Source: Candidatus Woesearchaeota archaeon
GTDB lineage: Archaea; Nanobdellota; Nanobdellia; SCGC-AAA011-G17; JACPIM01
Reading direction: 5' to 3'
DNA: 43,174 nt
Assembly: GCA_016185635.1 (NCBI GenBank)
Contig: JACPNF010000077.1
Location: forward strand, 1-43,174
Position 1 is the first letter of the stretch. Each line of letters starts with the position of its first letter. A model generated the notes under the pieces. That model was not told the DNA's origin, ran no database searches, and saw only the letters and a list, made by a program, of their open reading frames with translations. The position numbers and the translations under genes were made by a program. Shown in pieces: positions 28,875 to 41,901 of this stretch.

Positions 28875-29836
28875 TTTTTAATATTCAATCCTAATGACAC
28901 TAACTCAAAACTTTGCACTCTTTTTTTAGGCCTTACAGCTTCCGTCATTATAACTGGCCTTTTGTAAGTGCCTACAACAGAGCCACTGACTAAAACATAA
29001 TTATTTTTTACAACCCCATATTGCCTGAACCCGCCTGCATTTTCTATTTCTTTTGGATTGTTCCCTATTTTTAACAGTAATTTATTATACTCAGTTCTTT
29101 GATGGAATCCCATCTTTCCTGGCTGTGCAACAGTGCTTCTTACTCTTGATGGATGCCATGGTCCTACTGAACCTATTCCTCTTACTTTTTTCTTTGACTT
29201 ATGAGCCACTCTTCCAACTCCAAATCTTTTTATTGGTCCTTGAAAGCCCTTTCCTTTTGTAACTCCATGCAGATCTAATAATTGGCCTTCCTTGAAAACA
29301 TCATTTATTTTTATTTCCTTGTCAAGAAGGCTGTTTAAAAAGGCTGTTTTTTCTTCAAGATCTTTTCCTCCAACTTTCATTTCAGACACTTCAGGTTTTT
29401 TTCTGCCTACCCCAGTTAATTTTGGCTTTGTATAAACTACAATTCTAACTTCATCAAATTCTTTAGGAATAGCAGTATTTTTCTTTCCAGTCATGACTTT
29501 TCTTTTTAATTCCTTGTCGACATTTTTTGAAAAAACCTCAGAAATAAGCTTTAACCCGTCAAAATGTTGTTTGTAAAATCTTAAAGAAAGAACGCTTAAA
29601 GAAGGGCACTCTATAATCGTGATAGGAACAGCAATATTCTTTCCTTTAGTCATTGAATTAACAGTATTGTCTTTTACCATTGCCTGAGTCATTCCAACTT
29701 TATATCCAATAAACCCAAGAAGCTTTAAATTAGTATTATTATCAACCCAGTTCCTTATCCTTGCATAAGACTTTTTAGCCCTGCTTCTAGGCCAGACTTG
29801 CATGCTTCCTTTTCTTGGTTTGCTGTACTTTGACAT
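28871..29836 (-). CDS. rpl3: 50S ribosomal protein uL3
   Basis: KPRKGSMQVWPRSRAKK...GYKVGMTQ...VTKGKGFQGPIKRFGV; first gene of the cluster. Confidence 0.95.
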   Translation of the reverse strand: MSKYSKPRKGSMQVWPRSRAKKSYARIRNWVDNNTNLKLLGFIGYKVGMTQAMVKDNTVNSMTKGKNIAVPITIIECPSLSVLSLRFYKQHFDGLKLISEVFSKNVDKELKRKVMTGKKNTAIPKEFDEVRIVVYTKPKLTGVGRKKPEVSEMKVGGKDLEEKTAFLNSLLDKEIKINDVFKEGQLLDLHGVTKGKGFQGPIKRFGVGRVAHKSKKKVRGIGSVGPWHPSRVRSTVAQPGKMGFHQRTEYNKLLLKIGNNPKEIENAGGFRQYGVVKNNYVLVSGSVVGTYKRPVIMTEAVRPKKRVQSFELVSLGLNIKK

Positions 29837-29850
29837 ATCTTACTTTTGCT

Positions 29851-29914
29851 GGATTTTCTTTTTATAAGCCTTTTCCGTCGTTTTTCCCTGAAGGCTTTTC
29901 CTAAAAGGCTTCTT
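29851..29914. repeat. copy R7 of repeat family (upstream of rpl3)
   Basis: The 34-mer TTTTTCCCTGAAGGCTTTTCCTAAAAGGCTTCTT at 29881-29914 is identical to 34528-34561. It is preceded by GGATTTTCTTTTT, as in R9. Confidence 0.8.
29861..29867 (-). promoter_or_regulatory. candidate TATA box of the ribosomal operon
   Basis: The minus strand reads AAAGGCTTATAAAAAG, with the box centred about 28 nt upstream of the rpl3 ATG (29836). This is leaderless-type geometry. Confidence 0.4.
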
Positions 29915-30030
29915 CCTAGAATTAGCGACTGATTATATACGTAGAGGGTAAAGTTTTAAAGAAAATTTTCATTTATAAACATATCGTTTTATCCATTAAT
30001 CTTAAAAATATAATAAAAAAAGTATTTCTT

Positions 30031-30897
30031 ATGAAAAGGCTTACTATATTAATAGTAAATTACAAAAATAGCAGAGATACAGTTGAATTAATTGAAAACC
30101 TAAAATATTCAACATTTAATGACTTTAATATAGTTGTATGGGATAATAATTCTCCCAGGGATGAGTTCTTTAAAAGATTAGAAGAAAATAAGGAAATAAG
30201 ACTCATAAAAAATGATAAAAACATAGGCCTTACTGGAGCAGTTAATGAATCTTTAAGGCATATAACAACAAGATATGTTCTTTTGTTGAATCCTGATATT
30301 ATTATAGACAAAAATGCTGTAAAAGAACTTTTAGATTTAATTGAAAGTGATGAAAAAATAGCATTTGTTGGCGGCTCAATTTATAGTTTCATAAATAAAG
30401 ATAAAATAGATGCTTTTGGCGGAAAGATAAATTTCTTCACAGGCATAGGAAAGCCGTTAAAAAATGAAAATAAAATTAGGGAATTAAAATTTGGTGAATA
30501 CTGCGATGCCTGCATCTTGATGTTTAACAAGGATATTTTTGAAGAACTAGGAAAATATGATAACAGGTTTTTTGCTTATGCAGAAACTGAAGATGTATTG
30601 TTTATGGCAATGAAAAAAGGCTACAAAGTTATGATAAATCCAAAAGCAAAAGTATGGCACAAGCAATATGGAAGTTCAGGTGGGGAAAAAAATAAATTTG
30701 TTGTTTATCAGCTGACAAGAAACAGGTTCTTGATGATGAAAAAAAATGTTAATGCATTAAGATTTTTTTTATTTTTAATTATAAACTTCCTATTAATCTT
30801 TCCAGTTCAGTTTTTCTTATTTATTTTCAGAAAGCAGTTTGGCTTGATTCCTTCTTTTTTAAAGGGAATTTTCGATGGTTTGATAGGAAGATACTAA
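30031..30897 (+). CDS. family 2 glycosyltransferase
   Basis: LTILIVNYKNSRDTVELIENL...VVWDNNS...LLNPDII..., with a C-terminal TM segment. Confidence 0.75.
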   Translation: MKRLTILIVNYKNSRDTVELIENLKYSTFNDFNIVVWDNNSPRDEFFKRLEENKEIRLIKNDKNIGLTGAVNESLRHITTRYVLLLNPDIIIDKNAVKELLDLIESDEKIAFVGGSIYSFINKDKIDAFGGKINFFTGIGKPLKNENKIRELKFGEYCDACILMFNKDIFEELGKYDNRFFAYAETEDVLFMAMKKGYKVMINPKAKVWHKQYGSSGGEKNKFVVYQLTRNRFLMMKKNVNALRFFLFLIINFLLIFPVQFFLFIFRKQFGLIPSFLKGIFDGLIGRY

Positions 30898-30918
30898 ACA
30901 TCAAAATTGTATAATAAA

Positions 30919-31767
30919 TCATTTTTCAGCTATGAGTTTTCTCTTATTCTTTTCAGGTTCTGCTAAATAATTTTCTGAAGTAGTTATATCTTTGCCAGTT
31001 TCTAATTCAAGTTTCTTTCTTGCATCACCAGCAATCTTACCACCTTTCATGGCAGCAGATTTGTTTTCTTGAAATCCTTGAGTATCTTTTTTTCTTGCAA
31101 TTTCTGTTGTCGAAGCTTCACCAAGCATGTTAAATATTAATTCAAGATCAGTCATATGGTCTCGTAGATTTTCTCTTTTCAGACCTTTGAATTTCTTATA
31201 CTCATCGACAGTCTTGCCAAAAGTGGCTTTACTTATTTCATTAGTCAAAATAGCATAGTCATTATCTTCCTTGACCCCTCTTTTATTCCATTCATCAGTC
31301 AGCTCTTGCCTGATGGCTATGCCCCTTACTCTCTTTTCAATCCATTCTTCAGAATAACCTTTTGCCCTGTAGATCTCTTTCATCCTTGTCTGTGCAAGCT
31401 CTGGGTTTTGTATCTCTTCGACACGCTCGTAGCCGACTTTGGCAAGCCATTGCTTGAACGGCTCTGCCTTTGGTGAAGGAATAGACTGAATAATCCTAAA
31501 TAAGGTTTCTGTATTAGCACAATCAGTTTCATAGAATTTTCCATCTGCAGCCGGTAATTTCAGTTGGTGACAATTTGTCACCACCTCACTTCCTTCTTCT
31601 TTTAGTCTTTGACTGAGCTTATTCCAGTACTTTCTGGCTTTTAGATATTCATCTTGTTCTGTAAGAACTGCAATAATATCAACTACTGAAAAGTGCCACC
31701 CCCCATTATGCCATATCCTTCTTATTTTTTTATCCTGAAAAACAACCAAAGTATTATTTTCAGCCAT
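30919..31767 (-). CDS. Bro-N domain protein (BRO/DinD-like)
   Basis: LVVFQDKKIRRIWHNGGWHFSVVDIIAVL...KAEPFKQWLAKVGYERVEEIQNPELA...; visibly G+C-richer codons than its neighbours. Confidence 0.65.
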   Translation of the reverse strand: MAENNTLVVFQDKKIRRIWHNGGWHFSVVDIIAVLTEQDEYLKARKYWNKLSQRLKEEGSEVVTNCHQLKLPAADGKFYETDCANTETLFRIIQSIPSPKAEPFKQWLAKVGYERVEEIQNPELAQTRMKEIYRAKGYSEEWIEKRVRGIAIRQELTDEWNKRGVKEDNDYAILTNEISKATFGKTVDEYKKFKGLKRENLRDHMTDLELIFNMLGEASTTEIARKKDTQGFQENKSAAMKGGKIAGDARKKLELETGKDITTSENYLAEPEKNKRKLIAEK

Positions 31768-31958
31768 TTCCTCAATAAAGATATTGTGTTTTTTAATTAT
31801 TTAGGTAAGATAGAATATAAGTAAACATATTTGTTGAAAAGTTTGCAAGTATATTGAAAGATTTTCAGGATTTATGAAATATTTTCTTATTATTTGAAGA
31901 TACTAAATTACAATAATTCTTTTAAATGTTATAATCTTTAATATGTTTGGGGACTTTT

Positions 31959-32957
31959 ATGACAAGGATATTACTTACAGGAGGAGCTGGATTCATAGGG
32001 CATCATTTTGTTAATCATTTTCTTAACTTTACAGATTGGGATATTGTAGTTTTAGATAAATTAAATTATGCAAGCAGTGGTTTAGACAGGTTAAGAGATA
32101 TAAATACCTTCAATGAAAAAAGGGTTTTAATTTTAACTCATGATTTTACTAGACCAATTGAGGAAGGAATTGCGAAAGAGATAGGGGATGTTGAGTATAT
32201 TTTTCATTTGGGTGCTGAAAGTCACGTCAACAACAGCATAAAAAATCCAGAGCCGTTTGTAATGTCGAATGTCATTGGTACAATGAGGCTACTAGACTTT
32301 GCCAGGAAATGTAAAAGCTTAAAAAAATTCAATTTTTTTAATACTGATGAAGTTTTTGGCCCTGCACCAGAAGGTATTTTTTATAAAGAATGGGATAGGC
32401 ATAACCCTACAAATCCATATTCCGCAACAAAAGCAGGTGGGGAGATGCTTTGTCTAGCCTATGCTAATACTTATGGATTACCAATAGTTCTGACAAACAC
32501 GATGAATGTCTTTGGCGAGAGGCAGCATCCTGAAAAATTTATTCCCATGACAATAAGAAAAATTCTAGCTGGTGAAAAAGTCATAATCCATTCAGATCCT
32601 ACAAAAACAAAAGCAGGTTCAAGATTTTGGATACATGCCAGAAATGTTGCAGCAGCAATTATGTTCTTATTAGACAAGGGAAAAAACAGGGATAAGTATA
32701 ATATAGTGGGTGAAAGAGAAGTAGATAATTTGGAAATGGCAAAATTCATCGCAAAAGTCCTAAGAAAAGAGTTAAAATATGAAATGGTGGACTTTCATTC
32801 AAGCAGGCCAGGTCATGACTTAAGATATGCTCTTGATGGAACTAAAATGAAAGAAATGGGTTGGAATATCCCAATGACATTTGAGCAGTCATTGGAAAAA
32901 ACAATTAAATGGACTTTGGCAAATCCTAAGTGGCTGGAATTAAGCAAATATGAATAA
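31959..32957 (+). CDS. NAD-dependent sugar-nucleotide 4,6-dehydratase/epimerase (dTDP-glucose 4,6-dehydratase-like)
   Basis: ILLTGGAGFIGHHFV (Rossmann), YSATKAGGEML (YxxxK). The ATG at 31959 is preferred over the TTG at 31947. Confidence 0.8.
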   Translation: MTRILLTGGAGFIGHHFVNHFLNFTDWDIVVLDKLNYASSGLDRLRDINTFNEKRVLILTHDFTRPIEEGIAKEIGDVEYIFHLGAESHVNNSIKNPEPFVMSNVIGTMRLLDFARKCKSLKKFNFFNTDEVFGPAPEGIFYKEWDRHNPTNPYSATKAGGEMLCLAYANTYGLPIVLTNTMNVFGERQHPEKFIPMTIRKILAGEKVIIHSDPTKTKAGSRFWIHARNVAAAIMFLLDKGKNRDKYNIVGEREVDNLEMAKFIAKVLRKELKYEMVDFHSSRPGHDLRYALDGTKMKEMGWNIPMTFEQSLEKTIKWTLANPKWLELSKYE

Positions 32958-32995
32958 AGAAAAGTTTATATTAATAATAATTTTTAGATAGAATA

Positions 32996-33826
32996 ATGTT
33001 CAGAAAGTACGGGTTTTTAGGGATATTATTGATATTATTAGTTGAGATAAATTTCTTTTACAGATATGTTGATATGGGGACTTTGTACTTTCCTTTAATC
33101 TGGTTTGGCTATATTTTTTTAGTAGATGCTTTGGTTTACAAATTGAGTAGAAATTCTTTGATATCCAACAGGCCTTACCAGTTTTTAGGGTTAATTATAT
33201 TAAGTGCCTTGTTCTGGTGGACATTTGAACTAATAAACTTTGCAGCAAGAAATTGGGAATATAAAAGCCTAGGAACAATATTCCCATATGGAATTGCAGT
33301 AATAATAAAAACACTTTCATTCTCAACAGTTCTCCCTGCTTTTTTTGAAACAGTTGAGCTAATTAAGTCAGTTCATTTGTTTGATAATAAAAAATTAAAA
33401 AAGAAGCACAATATTACAAAAAGGTTTATCCATGTAATGTTTGGAATAGGAATAATTTCTTTTATACTGCCAGTAGTATATCCAAATTATTTTTACCCGT
33501 TAATCTGGAGTACTTTTTTCTTTTTATTAGACCCAATAAATTATTTGCACAAGCAGCCGTCAATAATACAGCACTTAAAGGACAGAAAGCTGGCAATACC
33601 ATTTTCATTGTTATTGGCAGGAATTATTTTAGGATTTTTTTGGGAATTCTGGAATTACTGGGCTACAACAAAATGGTATTATAATATTCCTTTTGTAGGT
33701 TTCTTTAAAATATTTGAAATGCCAATTTTAGGTTATCTGGGTTACTTTCCCTTCTCATTTGAGCTGTATGCAATGTACTGGTTTACAAGAAGTTTGTTAT
33801 TGAAAAAAGAAAAGCAGTTAATCTAA
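32996..33826 (+). CDS. polytopic integral membrane protein, unknown function
   Basis: 276 aa with multiple hydrophobic helices, W/F/Y-rich. Confidence 0.5.
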   Translation: MFRKYGFLGILLILLVEINFFYRYVDMGTLYFPLIWFGYIFLVDALVYKLSRNSLISNRPYQFLGLIILSALFWWTFELINFAARNWEYKSLGTIFPYGIAVIIKTLSFSTVLPAFFETVELIKSVHLFDNKKLKKKHNITKRFIHVMFGIGIISFILPVVYPNYFYPLIWSTFFFLLDPINYLHKQPSIIQHLKDRKLAIPFSLLLAGIILGFFWEFWNYWATTKWYYNIPFVGFFKIFEMPILGYLGYFPFSFELYAMYWFTRSLLLKKEKQLI

Positions 33827-34521
33827 GCTTCAAAATTTATTTCTTTTTCAATTATTTTTCCATCAATGTTTAACATTCTTTTTATTTTTCCTTTCCTTAA
33901 GGCATTTTCTCTTGCCATTGCAGGATTATCCATGTCTTTATCGCTTACAATTAGTTCATTAATGGTAAAAGTATGGTTTATTTTTAATTCAGAAAAATTT
34001 TCATTTACATCAAAAGCAAATTCCTTGATAAAATTTAAGTCCTTAGCTGTAAAAGTGCAGAAATCTGCTTTAACTTCATTGTCTTTTCCAGGCTTTGCAG
34101 CCTTAGGAGATTTAACTTTTACTTTTAAAGTTCCATAATCTGTTGCAAAGCTCAATAAAAATAAGGCATCTGAAAATTTATTGAAAATATTGTTTAATGA
34201 ATCTTTGTCTATTTCATTATCAATCAAAAATGTCTTTACTCCTGCAAACTGCTTCATCTGAACATCAAAATTTAATTCTTTTCTTATATCTTTTTTAGTA
34301 ATTATTCCACCGGAAACTTTTGCCTTGTCTTTAACAGTATTTGCTAAAAATCTTGCAAAATCTTCTGCAAACTCAAAGCTGGTTTTTACTTTTACAGAAC
34401 TTTTTGATTTTTTTACCTCAACAACAGCCCTGTTTTCATAAACTCCCTTTCCAAATCTCTTGAACTGCTTATGTACTAAATTGTCGGTTTTTCCTTCAAA
34501 TATTTTTTTTATGAAATTCAT
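33823..34521 (-). CDS. hypothetical protein
   Basis: 232-aa ORF. Its first 12 coding nt plus 4 upstream nt are duplicated at 34560-34575. Confidence 0.5.
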   Translation of the reverse strand: MNFIKKIFEGKTDNLVHKQFKRFGKGVYENRAVVEVKKSKSSVKVKTSFEFAEDFARFLANTVKDKAKVSGGIITKKDIRKELNFDVQMKQFAGVKTFLIDNEIDKDSLNNIFNKFSDALFLLSFATDYGTLKVKVKSPKAAKPGKDNEVKADFCTFTAKDLNFIKEFAFDVNENFSELKINHTFTINELIVSDKDMDNPAMARENALRKGKIKRMLNIDGKIIEKEINFEA

Positions 34522-34524
34522 TTT

Positions 34525-34561
34525 TTATTTTTCCCTGAAGGCTTTTCCTAAAAGGCTTCTT
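34525..34561. repeat. copy R8 of repeat family, flanked by 16-bp direct repeats
   Basis: The 34-mer at 34528-34561 is identical to R7. The flanking TTATGAAATTCATTTT occurs at 34509-34524 and 34560-34575. Confidence 0.85.
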
Positions 34562-34573
34562 ATGAAATTCATT

Positions 34574-34807
34574 TTAGGAAGAGTTAGTCTGGTTATTTTT
34601 TGGAAGCCATTCTTTTTTTGTAACCTCTCCTGTAATGTCTTTTACATTAGTAAAAACGCTGTAAACCCAACCAGAATAAACCTTGGCAAAACTTATTAAA
34701 TCATCCTTGTTCTTTAGATTATAATTGTTATACGTCTTGACAAAATAAGCCCCTATTACTAACAGGATTAATATTAAGACAACAAGTCTGCTTATTAATT
34801 TAGGCAT
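34574..34807 (-). CDS. small N-terminally membrane-anchored protein
   Basis: 77 aa starting MPKLISRLVVLILILLVIGAYF... Confidence 0.4.
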   Translation of the reverse strand: MPKLISRLVVLILILLVIGAYFVKTYNNYNLKNKDDLISFAKVYSGWVYSVFTNVKDITGEVTKKEWLPKNNQTNSS

Positions 34808-34854
34808 ATCAATTTAGAAAGGTTTAAAATATAATATAAAGCTTTTTATTTTAT

Positions 34855-34959
34855 GCTCCCATAGTCTAGTCCGGTTATTTTAATAAAACCGAAAGGACGC
34901 GAGCCTCTCGAGATATTCGGGGAACGCTCGATACCTGGGTTCAAATCCCGGTGGGAGCA
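34855..34959 (+). tRNA. tRNA-Glu(CUC) with two apparent introns (D-loop and anticodon loop)
   Basis: Acceptor GCTCCCA/TGGGAGC, D stem GTCT/GGAC, anticodon stem CGAGC/GCTCG, loop beginning CTCTCG(A), T arm CTGGG-TTCAAAT-CCCGG, discriminator A. At 105 nt it is about 30 nt too long: the D-loop is 27 nt and 21 nt lie between the anticodon stem halves. Confidence 0.7.
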
Positions 34960-35004
34960 TAAAATTTTTGATTAAAAACATAAAAATATTAAATTCTCAA
35001 GCTG

Positions 35005-35043
35005 TACGTCTACATAGAAAACTTTATAAATAATGTAGACGTA
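35005..35043 (+). promoter_or_regulatory. 11-bp perfect inverted repeat bracketing a TATA box upstream of the MNT/HepT pair
   Basis: TACGTCTACAT (35005-35015) and ATGTAGACGTA (35033-35043) enclose CTTTATAAATA. The ATG at 35052 is about 25 nt downstream of the box. Confidence 0.45.
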
Positions 35044-35048
35044 TAAAA

Positions 35049-35522
35049 TTGATGGTTTATACAGAAATCAAGGAAAGAAATGGAAAAAAGTATTTTTACA
35101 GAGTTATATCTATAAGAAATAAAAATAAGGTATCTAAAAAAAGAGAATATCTTGGCATTAATTTATCTAAAAAAGAATTATCTTTCAAGGAAAAAGAAGC
35201 AGATAAAGTGCTTAATCTAAAAAATATAGAAAAGAAAAATAAAGCTATAGAAAAATTAAAGCCGATAATAATAAAAATTCTAAAAAAACATGGAGTAAAA
35301 AGAGCAGGTATTTTCGGGAGTTATGCCCGTGGAGAGCAAAAGAAAAATAGTGATATTGATATTTTAGCAGACATTCCAAAAAAAGTAAATTTATTTGATT
35401 TCGTTGGAATAAAATTAGAATTAGAAGATGCCTTGAAAAAAAAAGTTGATTTAGTTGAATACAAATTAATTAGACCAGAACTCAAAAATATTATATTAAA
35501 TGAAGAAGTGAAAATATTATGA
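35049..35522 (+). CDS. nucleotidyltransferase (MNT/MntA-type antitoxin) with extra N-terminal domain of about 80 aa
   Basis: GIFGSYARGEQKKNSDIDILADI...KVDLVEY; overlaps the HepT gene by 4 nt. Confidence 0.8.
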   Translation: MMVYTEIKERNGKKYFYRVISIRNKNKVSKKREYLGINLSKKELSFKEKEADKVLNLKNIEKKNKAIEKLKPIIIKILKKHGVKRAGIFGSYARGEQKKNSDIDILADIPKKVNLFDFVGIKLELEDALKKKVDLVEYKLIRPELKNIILNEEVKIL

Positions 35523-35878
35523 AAAGAAAAGAAGGATTATTTTTAAAAGATATTATAGAAAGCATTGAAAATATAAAGAAATTCACAAAAAGTATATCAA
35601 AAGAAGAATTTATAAAAAATAGACTAATCCAGGATGCTGTTATAAGGGAAATTGAAATAATCGGCGAAGCTGTTAAACATATATCAGATGACATAAAAGA
35701 AAGATATCCCGAAATTGAATGGAAAAATATTTCTGGAACAAGAGATATTTTTATTCATGGATATTTTCAAGTTAACTTAGAAAAGGTCTGGGATATTGTA
35801 AAAAATAACCTTGATAATTTGAAACAAAACATTCTGAAAGTAAAAGTATATGTTGACTCAAAAGAAGAAGTAAGATAA
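35519..35878 (+). CDS. HepT/DUF86-family HEPN toxin
   Basis: IQDAVIREIEIIGEAVKHIS...W..ISGTRDIFIHGYFQV....VW (Rx4-6H context). Confidence 0.8.
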   Translation: MKRKEGLFLKDIIESIENIKKFTKSISKEEFIKNRLIQDAVIREIEIIGEAVKHISDDIKERYPEIEWKNISGTRDIFIHGYFQVNLEKVWDIVKNNLDNLKQNILKVKVYVDSKEEVR

Positions 35879-35974
35879 AGGAAAATTAGCCAATTTGGTA
35901 GGGTTACTGTGGAAGCATTTTTATGATTTCTTGAAAAGTTCAGCTTTTTAAATAGGTAGATATTGAATTTTTAC

Positions 35975-37189
35975 ATGGACCTAAACAATTTAAAGTTAAA
36001 TTCGAATTTAATAAAAGCCATAAAGGAAATGGGTTATACTGAATTCACAGAAATCCAGAATAAATGTATTCCAGCTATTCTAGAAGGAAAAGACATATTT
36101 GGGCAGTCAAAAACAGGATCTGGCAAAACAGCTGCTTTTGGATTGCCTATTTTACAAAAAATAAAGCCGGGTGAGGGACTTCAAGTCTTAATTTTGACTC
36201 CGACAAGAGAATTATGCGTGCAGGTTACCCAAGTATTAAATAATTTTGGAAAATATTCTAAAATTAAGGCTGTAAGCATTTATGGGGGAGTTGGTATTGA
36301 ACCTCAAATTAGAGACATCAAAAAAGCAGATATTGTCATCGGAACTCCTGGAAGAATACAGGATCACCTGGGCAGAAAAACAATTTCATTTCAAAATATA
36401 AAATATTTAGTCCTGGATGAAGCTGATAGAATGTTTGATATAGGTTTTATCAATGTTGTAGAAAGAATAATAGCACATACGCCAAAAGAGAAGCAGACGT
36501 TATTATTCAGTGCAACTTTATCAGAAAGCGTAAATCATATTTTAAAAAAGCACCTTAAAAATCCAATAATTATCAAAAGCTCAGAATATGTTGAGCCAGA
36601 AAAATTAAAACAGATTTACTATAGCCTAGAATATTATGAGAAATTTTCTTTGCTGGTTCATTTATTAAAAAAAGAAACTTTTGGGATAGCCTTGGTTTTT
36701 TGTGCAACACGAAGAGAAGTTGATTTATTAACAAGAAACCTGAGAAAACAAGGAATTAAAGTAATGGGAATTCATGGGGGATTAACTCAGAACAGAAGAC
36801 AGCAGGCTTTAAATCAATTGAAAAGTGAAAATATTAGAGTTTTAGTTGCAACTGATGTTGCTGCAAGGGGTTTGGATATTCCAAATATTACTCACGTGTA
36901 TAACTATGATGTTCCGAAAACTTCTGACGAATATATTCATAGGATAGGAAGGACTGCGAGAGCTGGAGAAATGGGAGAAGCTATTACTCTCTTAATTGAA
37001 AAAGATTATTCCAATTTTGATAATGTACTAAGCAACAGAAGAATCCAAATTAAAAAAGAAGAAGTCCCTAAATTTAAAAAAGTTTATTTTGAAAGAAATA
37101 TGGAAAGAAGAAGACCTTTTCAGAGAGTTTCATTTCCAGGAAAAAAATATGGGCAAAGAGAAGAAAAAAGATATCATTATAGAAGATAG
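35975..37189 (+). CDS. DEAD-box ATP-dependent RNA helicase
   Basis: Q-motif FTEIQ, GQSKTGSGKT, PTRELC, VLDEADRM, SAT, HRIGRTARAG. The ATG at 35975 is preferred over the TTG at 35963. Confidence 0.9.
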   Translation: MDLNNLKLNSNLIKAIKEMGYTEFTEIQNKCIPAILEGKDIFGQSKTGSGKTAAFGLPILQKIKPGEGLQVLILTPTRELCVQVTQVLNNFGKYSKIKAVSIYGGVGIEPQIRDIKKADIVIGTPGRIQDHLGRKTISFQNIKYLVLDEADRMFDIGFINVVERIIAHTPKEKQTLLFSATLSESVNHILKKHLKNPIIIKSSEYVEPEKLKQIYYSLEYYEKFSLLVHLLKKETFGIALVFCATRREVDLLTRNLRKQGIKVMGIHGGLTQNRRQQALNQLKSENIRVLVATDVAARGLDIPNITHVYNYDVPKTSDEYIHRIGRTARAGEMGEAITLLIEKDYSNFDNVLSNRRIQIKKEEVPKFKKVYFERNMERRRPFQRVSFPGKKYGQREEKRYHYRR

Positions 37190-37282
37190 CTAAAAATATA
37201 CTTTATAGTTATGCTGGGTAGTCAAACTTTTTGATTATTCCGCCGTCAGTATTGTTCTTTAAAAAGAAAAAAAGAAAAAAAA

Positions 37283-37483
37283 TTACTGGTTTTTGTTGTT
37301 TATTCCAAGATAATTATGCAGCAAGCACCAACCGATTAGACTTTCCAAAAGTGCTATCCATCCAACAGCGTGAACTATCCAATTTGCCCATCCCAAACTA
37401 AAGTGTGGTGCATAAGAACTTAGCCACCAGACTCCAAGCAAAAATCGAAAAATCCTGTCTAATTTTCCCAAATTTTGTTTCAT
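37283..37483 (-). CDS. DUF2892 (YgaP-like) small membrane protein
   Basis: NLGKLDRIFRFLLG... with two TM helices. Confidence 0.55.
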   Translation of the reverse strand: MKQNLGKLDRIFRFLLGVWWLSSYAPHFSLGWANWIVHAVGWIALLESLIGWCLLHNYLGINNKNQ

Positions 37484-37494
37484 GATTTCACCTC

Positions 37495-37782
37495 TTAATT
37501 TTTTTCAATATCAAAACGTATCTTGAATTTCTTTCTCGTGAAATGCTTGTAATAACCGTCAATTAAATCCATCCCAGCATAACCTCCTAAAAAGCTAAGC
37601 TGTTTTGCAAATCCAAAAAGTATTCCAGAAAAAGCTCCAGAAGCAATAACTAATATTGCGTAAAACCCGAATTTTTTAGAGTCAATTTTCTTTTTTGACT
37701 GGTATGATTTTATTAAATCAACTAACAGCCTGACTACCCCTCCTAATATCCCAAAAACAACAGCTATAGTTAATTCACTCAT
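37495..37782 (-). CDS. small membrane protein, tandem paralog
   Basis: 95 aa sharing G.LGG.VR.L and GY.G.D blocks with 37779-38051. Confidence 0.5.
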   Translation of the reverse strand: MSELTIAVVFGILGGVVRLLVDLIKSYQSKKKIDSKKFGFYAILVIASGAFSGILFGFAKQLSFLGGYAGMDLIDGYYKHFTRKKFKIRFDIEKN

Positions 37783-38051
37783 TTTCTTATGAAAACACTC
37801 CCTTCTAAAGTAGCTTTAAAGACATTTTCCAAGATATCAGTTCCAACATATCCAGTAAGAGCAGCTATGTTATATTGTGTATTAAACACGCTTCCGAGAA
37901 TACCTCCAATAGCTCCCGCAATAATAATTGTGGTTAAAAAGTAACCAATGCTGATAGTCTTGTTTTTGGCAACAGCCTTCATTATTCCATATAAAGCCCT
38001 GACTAATCCTCCTAAAGCTCCTACCAAAATAAAAGCAATCACCTCTTGCAT
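37779..38051 (-). CDS. small membrane protein, tandem paralog
   Basis: 90 aa; 4-nt overlap with the downstream paralog. Confidence 0.5.
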   Translation of the reverse strand: MQEVIAFILVGALGGLVRALYGIMKAVAKNKTISIGYFLTTIIIAGAIGGILGSVFNTQYNIAALTGYVGTDILENVFKATLEGSVFIRK

Positions 38052-38129
38052 TATTTTGCTTAAGAGTTTGTAATTTAATAAGTTTTTGATATAACAATAC
38101 TTAAAAACAGGTTTACATAGATAATATAG

Positions 38130-38786
38130 GTGGGGACTTTAGAAGATATATTAATTGATACAGGTTGCCTATTTATACCTAAATTAGACAAGGTAGCTTT
38201 CAAAATTCAAACTAATTATAGGAAGTGTTCAAATTTTTTTCAGGGGAGAAAAAGAAGATTAGGTGAAGTAAAAGCATTTAATTTGCAGGATTTAGCACAA
38301 GTACTTGATATAGTGCAAAAGAACCAGGAAGCTGTTTCCAATTTAAATGCTCTTTTCATAGACTCTACTCTTTCTGGTGAAGATGGAGTTTATAAAACAG
38401 AAAGACTGCTTGAAAGAGGCCTTGGATCATTTTTGTTGAATAAGTTCTGTATTAATAATAAAGCAAGAGAATCTATTTTTTCATGTGTTAGCCATGAAGC
38501 CTTTGGAAATGATAAAGAAGAAAAAGAAGGAGAAAAGCATTACTTTGATTTTTTAAAGGGAAAAAGATATCAAAGTACAGGGAAATCACGAAGTTTTGTG
38601 ATACCTTGCTATGAAGCTTTTATAGAATTCTTTTATTCTTTAATAGGCAAGAAGTACCAAGATAAAGGCAAGCCGCGAAGTTTTGTATTTCCAGAGTATG
38701 AAGCTTTTGTTGAATTCACGGTAAAAGACCCTGAAAAATTTGTAATAGATGGAAGATATATCCTTCAAAATCACAATAAACCTTAA
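38130..38786 (+). CDS. hypothetical protein with internal 29-aa duplication
   Basis: 218 aa with a GTG start. GKRYQSTGKSRSFVIPCYEAFIEF is repeated as GKKYQDKGKPRSFVFPEYEAFVEF. Confidence 0.45.
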   Translation: MGTLEDILIDTGCLFIPKLDKVAFKIQTNYRKCSNFFQGRKRRLGEVKAFNLQDLAQVLDIVQKNQEAVSNLNALFIDSTLSGEDGVYKTERLLERGLGSFLLNKFCINNKARESIFSCVSHEAFGNDKEEKEGEKHYFDFLKGKRYQSTGKSRSFVIPCYEAFIEFFYSLIGKKYQDKGKPRSFVFPEYEAFVEFTVKDPEKFVIDGRYILQNHNKP

Positions 38787-38810
38787 AAATCTTGAAAATA
38801 TAGCAAAGAT

Positions 38811-39143
38811 ATGCTTGAAGACGCCCAGTTGGTAGTTTGCAGGAAATGCAGGAAGAAAGTTCATCCTTCTGAATTAAAAAGAGAAAGTCCAAACAGTAGC
38901 TCAATGGTTTGCAATTCTTGTTTAGGCAGAATGAAGGAAGTAAGCAGCACAATTGAAGAATTAAAAAGCAATATTTCAAATTCAAGCGAGGAAAAAAAGA
39001 GATATTACTGTGAGGAATGCGGCTTTAAATTTACAAGAACTGGCAGGCTTATTAACAATACATGCCCTTATTGTTCTAAAGAAAGTGTAAAGGTAGTAGA
39101 AATTAATTTGATAAAAGAAATAAAAGACAATAGTTTTGAATAA
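38811..39143 (+). CDS. double zinc-ribbon protein
   Basis: CRKC...CNSC and CEEC...CPYC pairs. Confidence 0.5.
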   Translation: MLEDAQLVVCRKCRKKVHPSELKRESPNSSSMVCNSCLGRMKEVSSTIEELKSNISNSSEEKKRYYCEECGFKFTRTGRLINNTCPYCSKESVKVVEINLIKEIKDNSFE

Positions 39144-39160
39144 AATAATTCTTTAATCTA

Positions 39161-39217
39161 TTTTCCGAGGTTTTCTTTTTCGTTTTTTCCCTGAAGGCTT
39201 TTTCTAAAAGGCTTCTT
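39161..39217. repeat. copy R9 of repeat family (abuts stop codon of 39216-39644)
   Basis: TTTTCCGAGGTTTTCTTTTTC followed by a 34-mer 33/34 identical to R7/R8. Its last two nt are part of the TAA stop (39216-39218) of the minus-strand gene. Confidence 0.8.
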
Positions 39218-39644
39218 ATTTGCTTTCCAAATAAATTCTATATATAATCTTTAAAGATACCATTACTACAGCTAAGCTCAGGAATATTGACATGTTAAGC
39301 AAAGCTGCCCTTAAGTAAACACCTATATTAAAATAATTGATAACCTGCACAGGTGCAGCGCTGACTAAAATTAAGCCGATTGAAGCCAGTAAAAAATAAG
39401 GAGCTTCTCTCTTGCTGACATCTAAAAACCCTACAACAGCCCCCAGCAATAATAAGATAACTCCTTTTCCAGCACTTAACTGGTTAGGTTCTGCAATTGT
39501 AAATAAGATAACTAATAAAATCCCTAAGCTGAAGAAAAAATGACCAAAATTAAGTTTTCTACTGCCATCAAATAAATCTTTGGATTCTTTTTTAACCTCT
39601 AGCCTTAAATTATTTAAAGCTCCTTTTTTTCCCTTCTTAGCCAT
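39216..39644 (-). CDS. integral membrane protein, unknown function
   Basis: 142 aa with a basic N-terminus followed by 4 hydrophobic helices. Confidence 0.5.
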   Translation of the reverse strand: MAKKGKKGALNNLRLEVKKESKDLFDGSRKLNFGHFFFSLGILLVILFTIAEPNQLSAGKGVILLLLGAVVGFLDVSKREAPYFLLASIGLILVSAAPVQVINYFNIGVYLRAALLNMSIFLSLAVVMVSLKIIYRIYLESK

Positions 39645-39735
39645 GATTATAAAAAACCTTAGAGTATATATAAAAATTTTTAACCATTTAAGAATAGCAA
39701 TTAATAAAAATACAAACTAATATTTAAACAAATAA

Positions 39736-39808
39736 GCAGTAGTAGTATAGTCTGGTAGTACGAGAGCTTCCCAAGCTTTTAGCCCGGGTTCAAATCCCGG
39801 CTACTGCA
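39736..39808 (+). tRNA. tRNA-Gly(CCC)
   Basis: A 73-nt cloverleaf: GCAGTAG/CTACTGC acceptor, GTAT/GTAC D stem, AGAGC-TTCCCAA-GCTTT anticodon arm, CCGGG-TTCAAAT-CCCGG T arm. No encoded CCA. Confidence 0.85.
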
Positions 39809-39846
39809 TAAGATTTATAAACAACCTAATTCAAAAAAAATTTAAG

Positions 39847-41901
39847 ATGGTTTACACAGCCTTGATTTGGATAATAGGAATTTTGTCATTGTTATTTGCA
39901 TTATTCTTGACAAGAAATCTTCTTAAGTTTGATCAAGGCAATCAAAAGATGAAGGAAATTACCAATGCAATAAAAGTTGGGTCAAATGCATTTTTAAAAA
40001 GGCAGTACAAGACAATAAGTATATTATCAGTTATTCTTGCAATTTTAATTTTTGCAGTTTATTCTTATCTTGGAAAAACAGTAGAGGGCAGTATAACTGC
40101 CATGGCATTTTTGTTCGGTGCATTTAGTTCTGCATTGTCAGGATTTATAGGCATGTGGATAGCAGTCAGGGCAAATTCAAGAACAACTGCTGCTGCAGAA
40201 AAAAGTCTTAACAACGCTCTGCAGGTTTCATTAAGATCAGGAGCAATATCAGGAATTGCAATTGTTGCATTGTCTTTGTTAGGTGTTTCTTTTATGATAT
40301 TCCTGTTGCAGCAAGCTGGTTTTGATATTAAAGAAATTCCATTCTTGATTGTTGGTTATGGTTTTGGTGCTTCATTTGTTGCATTGTTTGCGCAATTAGG
40401 CGGAGGAATTTTTACAAAGGCTGCAGATGTTGGTGCAGACTTGGTAGGTAAAATTGAGGCAGGAATTCCTGAAGATGATCCAAGAAACCCTGCTGTAATT
40501 GCAGACTTGGTTGGAGACAATGTTGGAGACTGTGCAGGTCGTGGTGCAGACTTGTTTGAAAGCACGGCAGCAGAAAATATAGGAGCAATGATAATAGGTG
40601 TTGCTTTGTTTCCTGTATTTGGGATTAATGGAATTTTATTTCCCTTGGTTGTAAGGGCATTTGGATTGATAGCATCTATAATTGGAGTAATGACAGTTAA
40701 GTGTGATGAAGATGAAAGCCCAATGAAAGCAATGGCAAAGGGATATTTTATTACGAGCGTACTTGCAACTCTGGCTTTTTATTTTGTTACAATAAAAATG
40801 CTTAACAACATTTGGTTTTTTTATTCAGGATTAGTTGGTATTGTTACAAGCATTCTTATTGTTCTAATAACTGTTTACTATACTGAAAGTTCTTTTAGGC
40901 CTGTAAAAAAAATTGCAAAGGCATCAGAAACAGGCCATGCAACAAATGTTATAGCAGGTTTTGCAGTAGGTTTAGAATCAACTGCTTTGCCAGTTATTGT
41001 TTTATCAGCTGCTTTAATTTTAGCATATAAATTTGGAGTTTTCTCCGGAATAGAACATGGAGGTATTTATGGGACAGCCATGGCAACAATGGGTATGCTA
41101 GCAACTGCAGCATACATACTTGCGATGGATAATTTTGGACCTATTGTTGATAATGCAGGAGGGATAGCTGAAATGTCAAAGGCAGAAGAATCCTTGAGAA
41201 AAAGAACAGATAAATTAGATGCTGTTGGAAACACAACTAAAGCCTTGACAAAGGGATATGCTATTGGTTCAGCAGCACTTGCGGCTTTCTTATTATTCTC
41301 AGCATATTTAGATGAGGTTGCAAAATATACTGGAAATGCAGTAATGTCAGTTGACATAACAAAAGTACCTGTTTTTGTAGGTGGATTTATCGGTGCAATG
41401 CTAATATTTTTATTTAGCTCTCTTGCTATTGATGCAGTAGGAGAAACAGCACACATTATTATTGATGAAGTCAGGCGTCAATTCAAGCAAATTCCTGGGA
41501 TAATGACTTACAAAAATAAGCCAGATTATGCAAAATGTGTTGATATATGTGCGAAAGCTGCTTTAAAACAGATGATCCTCCCAGGTGTTCTTGTAATTGG
41601 TTTAACAGTTATTGTTGGTATAATATTAAAAGCAGAAGCTGTTGCTGCTTATTTAATGATAGGAACAATATCTGGAATCTTAATGGCTTTAGTTCTTAAT
41701 ACAGGTGGTGGAGCTTTAGATAATGCCAAAAAACATATTGAAGCAGGTCATCATGGTGGAAAAGGAAGTCTAGCACACCAGGCAGCAATTACAGGAGATA
41801 CTTTTGCCGATGCCGGAAAAGATTGCGGCGGTCCAAGTTTACATGTTCTCATAAAATTATTAGGAACGATTACTTTAGTTCTTGCTCCTTTATTTATTTG
41901 A
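39847..41901 (+). CDS. hppA: membrane-bound proton-translocating pyrophosphatase
   Basis: 684-aa polytopic protein with GGGIFTKAADVGADLVGK, DPRNPAVIADLVGDNVGDCAGRGADLFES, GNTTKA and DNAKK. Confidence 0.95.
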   Translation: MVYTALIWIIGILSLLFALFLTRNLLKFDQGNQKMKEITNAIKVGSNAFLKRQYKTISILSVILAILIFAVYSYLGKTVEGSITAMAFLFGAFSSALSGFIGMWIAVRANSRTTAAAEKSLNNALQVSLRSGAISGIAIVALSLLGVSFMIFLLQQAGFDIKEIPFLIVGYGFGASFVALFAQLGGGIFTKAADVGADLVGKIEAGIPEDDPRNPAVIADLVGDNVGDCAGRGADLFESTAAENIGAMIIGVALFPVFGINGILFPLVVRAFGLIASIIGVMTVKCDEDESPMKAMAKGYFITSVLATLAFYFVTIKMLNNIWFFYSGLVGIVTSILIVLITVYYTESSFRPVKKIAKASETGHATNVIAGFAVGLESTALPVIVLSAALILAYKFGVFSGIEHGGIYGTAMATMGMLATAAYILAMDNFGPIVDNAGGIAEMSKAEESLRKRTDKLDAVGNTTKALTKGYAIGSAALAAFLLFSAYLDEVAKYTGNAVMSVDITKVPVFVGGFIGAMLIFLFSSLAIDAVGETAHIIIDEVRRQFKQIPGIMTYKNKPDYAKCVDICAKAALKQMILPGVLVIGLTVIVGIILKAEAVAAYLMIGTISGILMALVLNTGGGALDNAKKHIEAGHHGGKGSLAHQAAITGDTFADAGKDCGGPSLHVLIKLLGTITLVLAPLFI

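Follow-up and report, generated by a model that had tools for sequence, protein, structure and literature searches.

A 35-nt palindrome-cored repeat copied into the start of a gene in a DPANN archaeon

Among published systems, the element described here comes closest to the palindromic insertions that code for protein in Rickettsia, Wolbachia, and Methanocaldococcus jannaschii, i.e., the Rickettsia palindromic elements (RPEs) (Ogata et al. 2000), their Wolbachia equivalents, and the M. jannaschii coding repeats (Suyama, Lathe and Bork 2005), as summarised in PMC2996958. Repetitive extragenic palindromic (REP) sequences and the related BIME and REPIN are imperfect palindromes of ~20-40 nt that occur in many copies, mostly at gene ends, and are moved by RAYT transposases of the Y1 type; in the REP/REPIN-RAYT system, a GTAG or CGTC tetranucleotide tag is located at one end of the palindrome (PMC3733652). 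Prokaryotic MITEs (miniature inverted-repeat transposable elements) have a size of 50-800 bp, inverted repeats of no less than 10-15 bp at their termini, and target duplications that measure 2-10 bp (PMC11602168, PMC10969869). Here, we analyzed a 43,174-nt contig of Candidatus Woesearchaeota archaeon (JACPNF010000077.1; referred to as the window), in which a 35-nt repeat with a palindromic core lies between two copies of a 16-nt sequence at the junction of two minus-strand genes.

After this lineage had separated from its sister species, a copy of the repeat entered the opening codons of the downstream gene, which encodes a 232-aa protein. We consider it probable that this event was the recent copy-in of a mobile, largely selfish repeat, likely by template switching or gap-fill, followed by selection of the survivors and leaving a relay open reading frame (ORF) behind. 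In its properties, the element fits an RPE- or REP-like mobile palindrome and not a classical MITE. The host, a tiny groundwater archaeon, belongs to DPANN and is of the Woesearchaeota/Nanoarchaeota type; its assembly comprises 87 contigs and 1.02 Mb with 31% GC and encodes the ribosomal proteins L34e and L19e.

A 51-bp insertion at a gene junction

The features of the junction are as follows, in the order in which they are read on the minus strand.

34574..34807, minus strand: upstream gene for a predicted 77-aa membrane protein
34560..34575, minus strand: distal copy of the 16-nt duplication; its first two A's belong to the TAA stop of the 77-aa gene, and it holds the decoy ATG (34572-34570)
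34525..34572, minus strand: decoy mini-ORF of 15 codons, MNFIRSLLGKAFREK-TAA, with the ATG at 34572 and the stop at 34527-34525
34525..34559, minus strand: inserted 35-nt element, sense strand GAAGCCTTTTAGGAAAAGCCTTCAGGGAAAAATAA, absent from sister contigs
34509..34524, minus strand: proximal copy of the 16-nt duplication, in which the true start of the 232-aa gene (34521-34519) and its codons 2-4 lie
33823..34521, minus strand: downstream gene for a conserved 232-aa hypothetical protein of Woesearchaeota/Nanoarchaeota, for which no Pfam family was found

The 16-mer TTATGAAATTCATTTT occurs exactly twice, at 34509-34524 and 34560-34575, on either side of the 35-nt repeat copy, and no further copy was found in the window even at 2 mismatches. 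On the plus strand, the junction reads ...tttttt TTATGAAATTCATTTT ttatttttccctgaaggcttttcctaaaaggcttc TTATGAAATTCATTTT aggaag..., and the 35 nt between the 16-mers (34525-34559) are TTATTTTTCCCTGAAGGCTTTTCCTAAAAGGCTTC. On the minus strand, on which the duplication has the form AAAATGAATTTCATAA, the end of the 77-aa ORF (...TCC TAA) is followed by the distal copy (A ATG AAT TTC ATA A), the element, and then AAA ATG AAT TTC ATA AAA AAA ATA TTT GAA..., i.e., the proximal copy and the 232-aa ORF. Three parts make up the element itself: a near-palindrome of 23 nt (34537-34559, in which one C.C pair is mismatched), AGGG, and an A-rich tail that closes with TAA. An earlier reading of this DNA from its letters (the sequence-only reading) had placed the 16-mer twice around a 35-nt repeat unit, and these coordinates were exactly reproduced. 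Its further claims, that the duplicate holds the ATG and first codons of gene 33823-34521 and abuts the upstream TAA, and that the decoy mini-ORF is in frame with the real start with its ATG 51 nt upstream of it, were confirmed in the sequence.

Relatives of the 232-aa protein at 83-90% identity were drawn from JGI, ENA, and Logan contigs. A comparison of the orthologous junction, as the sequence-only reading had proposed, revealed an empty site in four sister contigs (L022, L025, L027, and L028), in which the 232-aa protein is 83-86% identical, the nucleotides are 84-88% identical, and the order of the 77-aa and 232-aa genes is the same. Here, the sequence reads ...TAAcATGAATTTCATAAAAAAAATATTTG (junction cttctTAAcATGAATTTCATAAAAAAAATATTTGAAGG) with the 51 bp missing, and the stop of the 77-aa gene is located one base before the 232-aa gene. 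Multiple alignment with the sister contigs gave a single clean gap of exactly 51 nt, and in blastn, the relative's lone 16-mer matches both copies in the window. L028 has the same empty junction despite a later internal deletion in the 232-aa gene, and in another genus of the same family (L002, L004, and L005), the junction is a tighter overlap, aaaATGA. The N-terminus MNFIKKIF is kept in 19/19 orthologues with a recovered start, and this conservation across the order shows that ATG 34521 is the real start of the 232-aa gene. Because the sister contigs carry the empty site and the start is conserved, the 51 bp are a lineage-specific insertion that duplicated its target. The locus provides direct filled-site/empty-site proof of the mobility of a 35-nt repeat in an uncultivated archaeon with a 1-Mb genome. 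No empty-site contig from the same aquifer was found among the Logan contigs, which drop rare variants.

Two other sequences at this junction deserve mention. In L028 (3001-3525), the 232-aa gene has its internal deletion after codon 14 (...GACAATTTAGTGCTTTGA) and is called as a 174-aa fragment, which may represent a pseudogene or an assembly error. In L003 (G008:C27), which is from another genus, a diverged family member of ~55 nt (GAACCCTTTTAAGAAAAGCGTTCACGGAAAAC, opposite strand) is independently inserted upstream of the orthologue; no convincing duplication was found at this insert.

A chance origin of the flanking 16-mers is excluded because only 1 of the 23 hairpin copies in the genome, namely the junction copy, has a flanking direct repeat of >10 nt and because a repeat of ≥16 nt anywhere within 60-nt flanks was found at only 3 of 2,000 random sites. 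The duplication is also not an assembly artefact, the possibility that the sequence-only reading had named as fatal to its claim. The locus was found in four groundwater metagenome runs (Logan contigs, k=31). The proximal 16-mer and the element are covered by contigs spanning 34261-34557, the element, the distal 16-mer, and the upstream gene are covered by separate contigs spanning 34532-34900, and both junctions were thus assembled independently, in separate contigs of three to four runs. Read depth was 70-630x inside the element versus 7-9x in the flanks, and loose contig ends cluster at 34524/25/28 and 34558/61; together, depth and ends indicate that what recurs at many loci of the community corresponds exactly to the 35-nt stretch separating the 16-mers. 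That assembly created the 16-nt duplication from a repeat common to other loci would be in line with the repetition of the 34-nt core in the genome and metagenome and with the k=31 contigs breaking there; however, they break only within this 34-nt repeat, as expected, the repeat is far shorter than a read, and the gene order matches that of relatives. We therefore regard this explanation, which would predict reads directly joining ...TAAAATGAATTTCATAAAAAAAA at full depth, as extremely improbable.

A family of sense-oriented repeats

The element is 31-35 nt long and has a polarity: after GAAGCC-TTTT-loop-AAAA-GCCTTC come AGGG and the A-rich tail. Using a loose hairpin pattern with shuffled sequence as the control, we counted 23 copies in the 1.02-Mb genome and 0 in the shuffles. 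A scan of metagenome contigs identified 45 loci in 43 distinct contexts; about 60 distinct copies were considered overall. The element is nearly always in the sense orientation of its neighbours and is located directly behind a stop codon, in an intergenic gap, or within a reading frame, where it is translated: in the genomic copies, its sense strand always matches the strand of the flanking gene, mostly 0-100 nt past a same-strand stop or within 3' coding tails, and the same is true of the 43 metagenome contexts. Diverged copies within the ribosomal-protein operon encode C-terminal tails of L24, L19e, an eL34-eL14 fusion, and others, giving tail peptides of the type EKSF.K/EKPSGKK; in-frame or translated metagenome copies lie in the middle of an ORF (L060), at an N-terminus (L033), and in an array (L043). 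The element is open in two or three reading frames, and mid-ORF copies are translated in all three. Through translation, its copies become tails of ribosomal proteins, N-terminal membrane anchors, and internal loops, and the family is thus a source of new peptide segments.

Two further copies in the window bear on the age of the insertion.

29881..29914, minus strand: family copy located 50-76 nt upstream of rpl3 and matching 34528-34561 at 34/34 positions
39184..39217, minus strand: family copy, 33/34 identical, beginning right after the TAA of gene 39216-39644, with no flanking duplication

The element is also present upstream of L3 in the sister species, and because it occupies the same place there, the copy at 29881-29914 is ancestral and a plausible donor. 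The identity of the two 16-mers and the 34/34 identity to this ancestral copy indicate that the junction insertion is recent. Downstream of gene 39216-39644, relatives with aa identities as low as 73% carry related modules, and indels lie between the GAAAA motifs. Because the copies near 39216-39644 and L3 are positionally old, the family is both resident and mobile.

The exact motif occurs at 9 places in the host genome, at 3 in one genome of a neighbouring genus (none in its three sister genomes), and at 2 in a genome of another family. Within the order, 3 of 151 genomes carry the exact element and 148 lack it, and among ~185,000 species, it was found in only 5 other genomes, all of DPANN archaea and Altiarchaeota. 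This patchy spread, together with the near-identity of the 31-mers, argues against an order-wide regulatory signal.

More generally, the repeat could be a conserved regulatory signal, such as a promoter-like TATA palindrome, a hairpin acting at 3' ends or in processing, or a site bound by a protein, that evolved locally and was not inserted. The positional conservation of the copies downstream of 39216-39644 and upstream of L3, the sense orientation, and the location of copies at gene ends are in agreement with such a signal, as is the distance of 24-27 nt between the A/T-rich centre of four junction copies and the next ATG, which is the archaeal distance from TATA to a leaderless start. Yet the clean 51-nt presence/absence difference with a duplicated target, the lack of the exact motif in nearly all genomes of the order, the translation of mid-ORF copies in all three frames, which is incompatible with a strong terminator or promoter, a hairpin no more stable than shuffled sequence, and the lack of an Rfam match all speak against it, and we consider local evolution of a signal very unlikely. 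Three specific readings were discarded. The distance from the element centre to the ATG ranges from 27 to about 90 nt in genomic copies, and L3 possesses a TATA box of its own, located downstream of the element, which disagrees with a promoter; a terminator is at odds with copies in the middle of ORFs; and a structured RNA was dropped because the folding energy of the hairpin is weak (-5 to -8 kcal/mol, with z about 0) and no better than that of shuffles. An Rfam scan of 29000-40500 at E<=1 returned tRNA-Gly only and no family for the element.

As in the coding palindromes of Rickettsia and M. jannaschii, the element is inserted in frame in unrelated genes as well as between genes; the proteins that host it include ribosomal proteins with their tails, a radical-SAM-like ORF (L060), and one with an N-terminal anchor (L033). 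RPEs are roughly 100-150 nt, whereas the element here is 31-35 nt, and by description it is also set apart by its strict sense orientation, asymmetric A-rich tail, and DPANN host, as well as by documented empty sites and 14- to 23-nt duplications that rebuild start codons. With REP, BIME, and REPIN, it shares the imperfect palindrome, the many copies, and the preference for gene ends; however, it has no GTAG/CGTC tag (it starts GAAG, or CTTC on the other strand), is not restricted to extragenic DNA, and is not accompanied by a repeat-flanked RAYT gene. REP/IS200-type movement is not known to leave a target duplication.

The family is modular. Two further recurring modules, GAAAAC(C/T)TCGGAAAAGAAA and GAGCTTTTCTTTAGAAAAG, occur alongside the element, and their order varies (window 39150-39190, C63:19470, C20:7385, and many metagenome loci). 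Partial copies with the 3' half of the element, such as 5' truncation during retro-insertion would leave, exist in few cases and within this highly modular family. In L043 (845-1028) and L079 (2794-2926), a perfect 51-nt tandem array that includes the element encodes an N-terminal (GSLLEKAFREKKKEATK)n in a nucleotidyltransferase-like ORF; with 4 copies in one sample and 3 in another, its copy number is polymorphic, and the agreement of its period with the length of the 51-bp insert in the window is probably a coincidence. In L088 (917-1116), a contig of higher GC from an Altiarchaeota metagenome-assembled genome, the element lies within a 121-nt tandem duplication beside a hairpin of similar style (CTTTCTTTTTTGTAAAAAGAAAG), and its presence in a different phylum may reflect horizontal spread or mis-binning. 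A difference in the L4 tail between sister species was not a clean insertion.

Flanking duplications and a predicted relay reading frame

Three independent metagenome copies have duplications that abut the element, and in two of the three, the duplication includes the downstream start codon. In L040 (ccgAAAAATGAGTAAAA-element-AAAAATGAGTAAAAtagcagtc), the duplication is 14 nt and includes the 8 nt over which the S5 stop and L30 start overlap. In L046/L062/L094 (AAAACAAAATGAAGACaCTAAAA-element core-AAAACAAAATGAAGACtCTAAAA), it is 19-23 nt and includes the ATG of a TldD-like gene; the relatives compared for an empty site at the L094 copy are only 40-48% identical and too distant to inform. In L060 (AAAAAAGAgCAGAA-element-AAAAAAGAaCAGAA), a 14-nt duplication is in frame in the middle of a 575-aa ORF, giving the protein sequence KKEQ-KKPFWKSLQGKL-KKEQ. 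In the random-site control for these duplications, scores of 11 or more were reached at 9 of 3,000 sites.

Together with the junction copy, the duplications have lengths of 14, 14, 16, and 19-23 nt, and none was found in the other ~56 copies. All four open with A4-A6 directly after the A-rich tail and close in AA before GAAGCC; accordingly, the starts AAAATG.., AAAAATG.., AAAACAAAATG.., and AAAAAAGA.. directly follow GGGAAAA(A). Thus, an empty site exists and flanking duplications are not confined to the junction copy, contrary to the outcome that the sequence-only reading had named as refuting its claim, namely the same 51 bp in every relative and no flanking duplication at other copies. Of the two routes that the sequence-only reading had offered, i.e., insertion with target-site duplication or duplicative recombination, the insertion is borne out by the empty site, whereas a target-site duplication in the transposase sense is not, with duplications at 4 of ~60 copies and lengths of 14-23 nt. 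Duplicative recombination is at least as likely as a transposase-type target-site duplication.

The insertion point is just after ...ATGAATTTCATAA. Because the 16-nt duplication spans the upstream stop and the downstream start, it left both tightly packed genes intact, and a duplication that rebuilds stop and start shows how DNA can enter genomes with abutting or overlapping genes. Genes that are 1 nt apart or overlapping represent an arrangement typical of translational coupling. The decoy ORF begins 1 nt past the stop of the upstream gene (TAA-A-ATG) and stops 3 nt before the real ATG (TAA-AAA-ATG). The leftover ATG would therefore open a 15-codon relay ORF that could preserve the coupling of the ancestral TAA-N-ATG junction. 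In every junction case, the mini-ORF ends at or overlaps the true start: TAA-AAA-ATG in the window, the duplicated S5 stop in L040, the TGA in ATGA in L046, and TAAATG in L056. The last is from G111 (L034/L056), in which the element lies between abutting genes as acaTGAAGCC...GGGAAAAATAAATG. Because the same geometry recurs in four loci, a ribosome relay via the decoy ORF is plausible. For annotation, it should be noted that the first in-frame ATG at the locus is the decoy.

Mechanism of copying and candidate enzymes

The family behaves as mobile, largely selfish DNA that is tolerant of translation and that survives where it is least harmful, i.e., after stops, between genes, and in N- or C-terminal tails, including those of ribosomal proteins. 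In the mechanism that we favor, copying would not follow a cut-and-paste scheme with a fixed stagger; it would more likely occur by template switching during replication or repair or by the filling of a gap at a break, with microhomology in A-runs at the two junctions. Duplications of variable length, or none, would result from such events, and selection at gene starts would keep only those in which the start codon was rebuilt. Given that terminal inverted repeats are lacking and that the duplications vary in length or are absent, a process not governed by an enzymatic ruler fits better than staggered cuts made by a transposase, and template switching, or break capture with fill-in, appears to be the most likely mechanism.

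The host genome has seven DDE_Tnp_1 transposase hits and one IS200-like TnpA (C47, C32, C87, C25, C61, C56, C41, and C81), an unusually high load of insertion sequences (IS) for a 1.02-Mb DPANN genome. The lone Y1_Tnp gene (C81:185-667) is of the IS200 type and is flanked by CTCAGGCCTAAAGGCCTGAG-type hairpins and not by the element; with these unrelated hairpins, a RAYT/REP link was rejected. An origin of the element ends from DDE_Tnp_1 elements was likewise rejected, as their inverted repeats are unrelated. The Cas1/casposase integrase (PF01867) is absent in G000, G008, G111, and G154, with control genomes positive, which speaks against integration of the CRISPR spacer or casposon type, and no rve integrase was found in the host genome.

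These transposases, and four independent copies with duplications abutting defined element ends, are what would be expected if the element were a classical non-autonomous transposon, i.e., an ultra-short MITE mobilised in trans by a transposase making staggered cuts of ~14-19 bp, with the 16-mer as a true target-site duplication. IS4-group elements such as IS1634/IS1549 give long, variable duplications, which also counts in its favor. Moreover, the element resembles MITEs in being non-autonomous, lineage-specific, and patchy, with flanking duplications at some copies. By contrast, it lacks terminal inverted repeats: it ends in GAAGCC... and ...CAGGGAAAAATAA, the palindrome is internal, and the asymmetric A-rich 3' tail is unpaired. 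Its duplications vary in length and are absent from most copies, the IS ends in the genome (e.g., GGCTCCATCCAAAAATTAAAT and the CTCAGGCCTAAAGGCCTGAG hairpins) bear no relation to it, and in G008, the element occurs with no DDE_Tnp_1 match. Finally, a length of 35 nt (31-35 nt in the family) is below the 50-800 bp of MITEs and the duplications are outside the 2-10 bp range (PMC11602168). Based on these differences, we regard a transposase-driven MITE as unlikely.

The sense orientation, the A-rich tail, and the variable duplications could also result from target-primed retro-insertion of an RNA intermediate, as for short interspersed nuclear elements (SINEs), in which an oligo-T 3' end left by a nick would pair with the A-rich tail and a second nick would be made 14-23 nt away. 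Variable target duplications are known for SINE/long interspersed nuclear element (LINE) target-primed insertions in eukaryotes and for IS1634/IS1549, and those observed here fall in the same 14- to 23-nt range. As in SINEs, the duplications start in an A-run that merges with the A-rich tail, and the complementary strand of the A4-A6 starts would offer a T4-T6 primer. The genome also contains a reverse transcriptase (RT) gene; however, this sole RT, with an LGNYTSQ motif, is of the diversity-generating retroelement (DGR) type, a G9 run splits it, and RT genes do not track the element, with G014, G005, and G006 having an RT without the element and G111 having the element without an RT. No matching RT/endonuclease of the SINE/LINE kind or IS1634-like partner was found in the host, an endonuclease partner is not known, A-runs are frequent in DNA of 31% GC, and the element is ten times shorter than a SINE. 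To our knowledge, no target-primed retro-insertion of this kind has been described in archaea, and we give this route little credence. As a separate observation, the DGR-type RT gene (C16:216-1114, LPLGNYTSQFFANIYL motif) lies in two frames split at a nine-G run, which may reflect a homopolymer sequencing error, a pseudogene, or a slippery site.

Several observations weigh against recent copy-in of a selfish repeat by template switching or gap-fill. A selfish model acting at the DNA level alone does not obviously predict that the orientation is sense in nearly every copy, and the diverged copy in L003 is antisense to its genes. The positional conservation of some copies in relatives is also consistent with a transcript-end function. 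The folding energy of the hairpin gives no support for hairpin-induced fork stalling, and the duplications, present in just 4 of ~60 distinct copies, are possibly the signature of a minority pathway. Template switching is deduced from junction features in very AT-rich DNA with common A-runs, the relay through the decoy ORF is a prediction from sequence geometry, and no mobilising enzyme or donor intermediate was identified.

A more speculative possibility, which we consider rather doubtful, is that DPANN archaea have an undescribed copy-and-paste process for 31- to 35-nt hairpin cassettes, which are placed into transcribed DNA in the sense orientation with 14- to 23-nt target duplications that open in A-runs. 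Such a route would be target-primed, with an RNA or single-stranded DNA template, or would use a dedicated machinery for the integration of hairpin DNA. If so, these cassettes would be the smallest mobile elements known, and start-codon duplications with relay mini-ORFs would be a regular by-product in gene-dense genomes. The combined signature of variable 14- to 23-nt duplications, A-run junctions, sense polarity, and no inverted ends or partner enzyme fits no described class of small mobile repeats in prokaryotes.

We also noted two features in the vicinity of the junction. At 34855-34961 on the plus strand of the window, a tRNA-like stretch has an acceptor GCTCCCA...TGGGAGCA and a T-arm CCTGGGTTCAAATCCCGG, with extra sequence in the D-loop and anticodon region; it was called by neither ARAGORN nor Rfam and may represent a tRNA whose introns are non-canonical. 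L027 (2496-3084) and L028 (4505-5078) carry, between the genes for the 276-aa protein and the epimerase, a PIN-domain gene with a small partner, likely a toxin-antitoxin pair, which is missing at 32971-32993 of the window.

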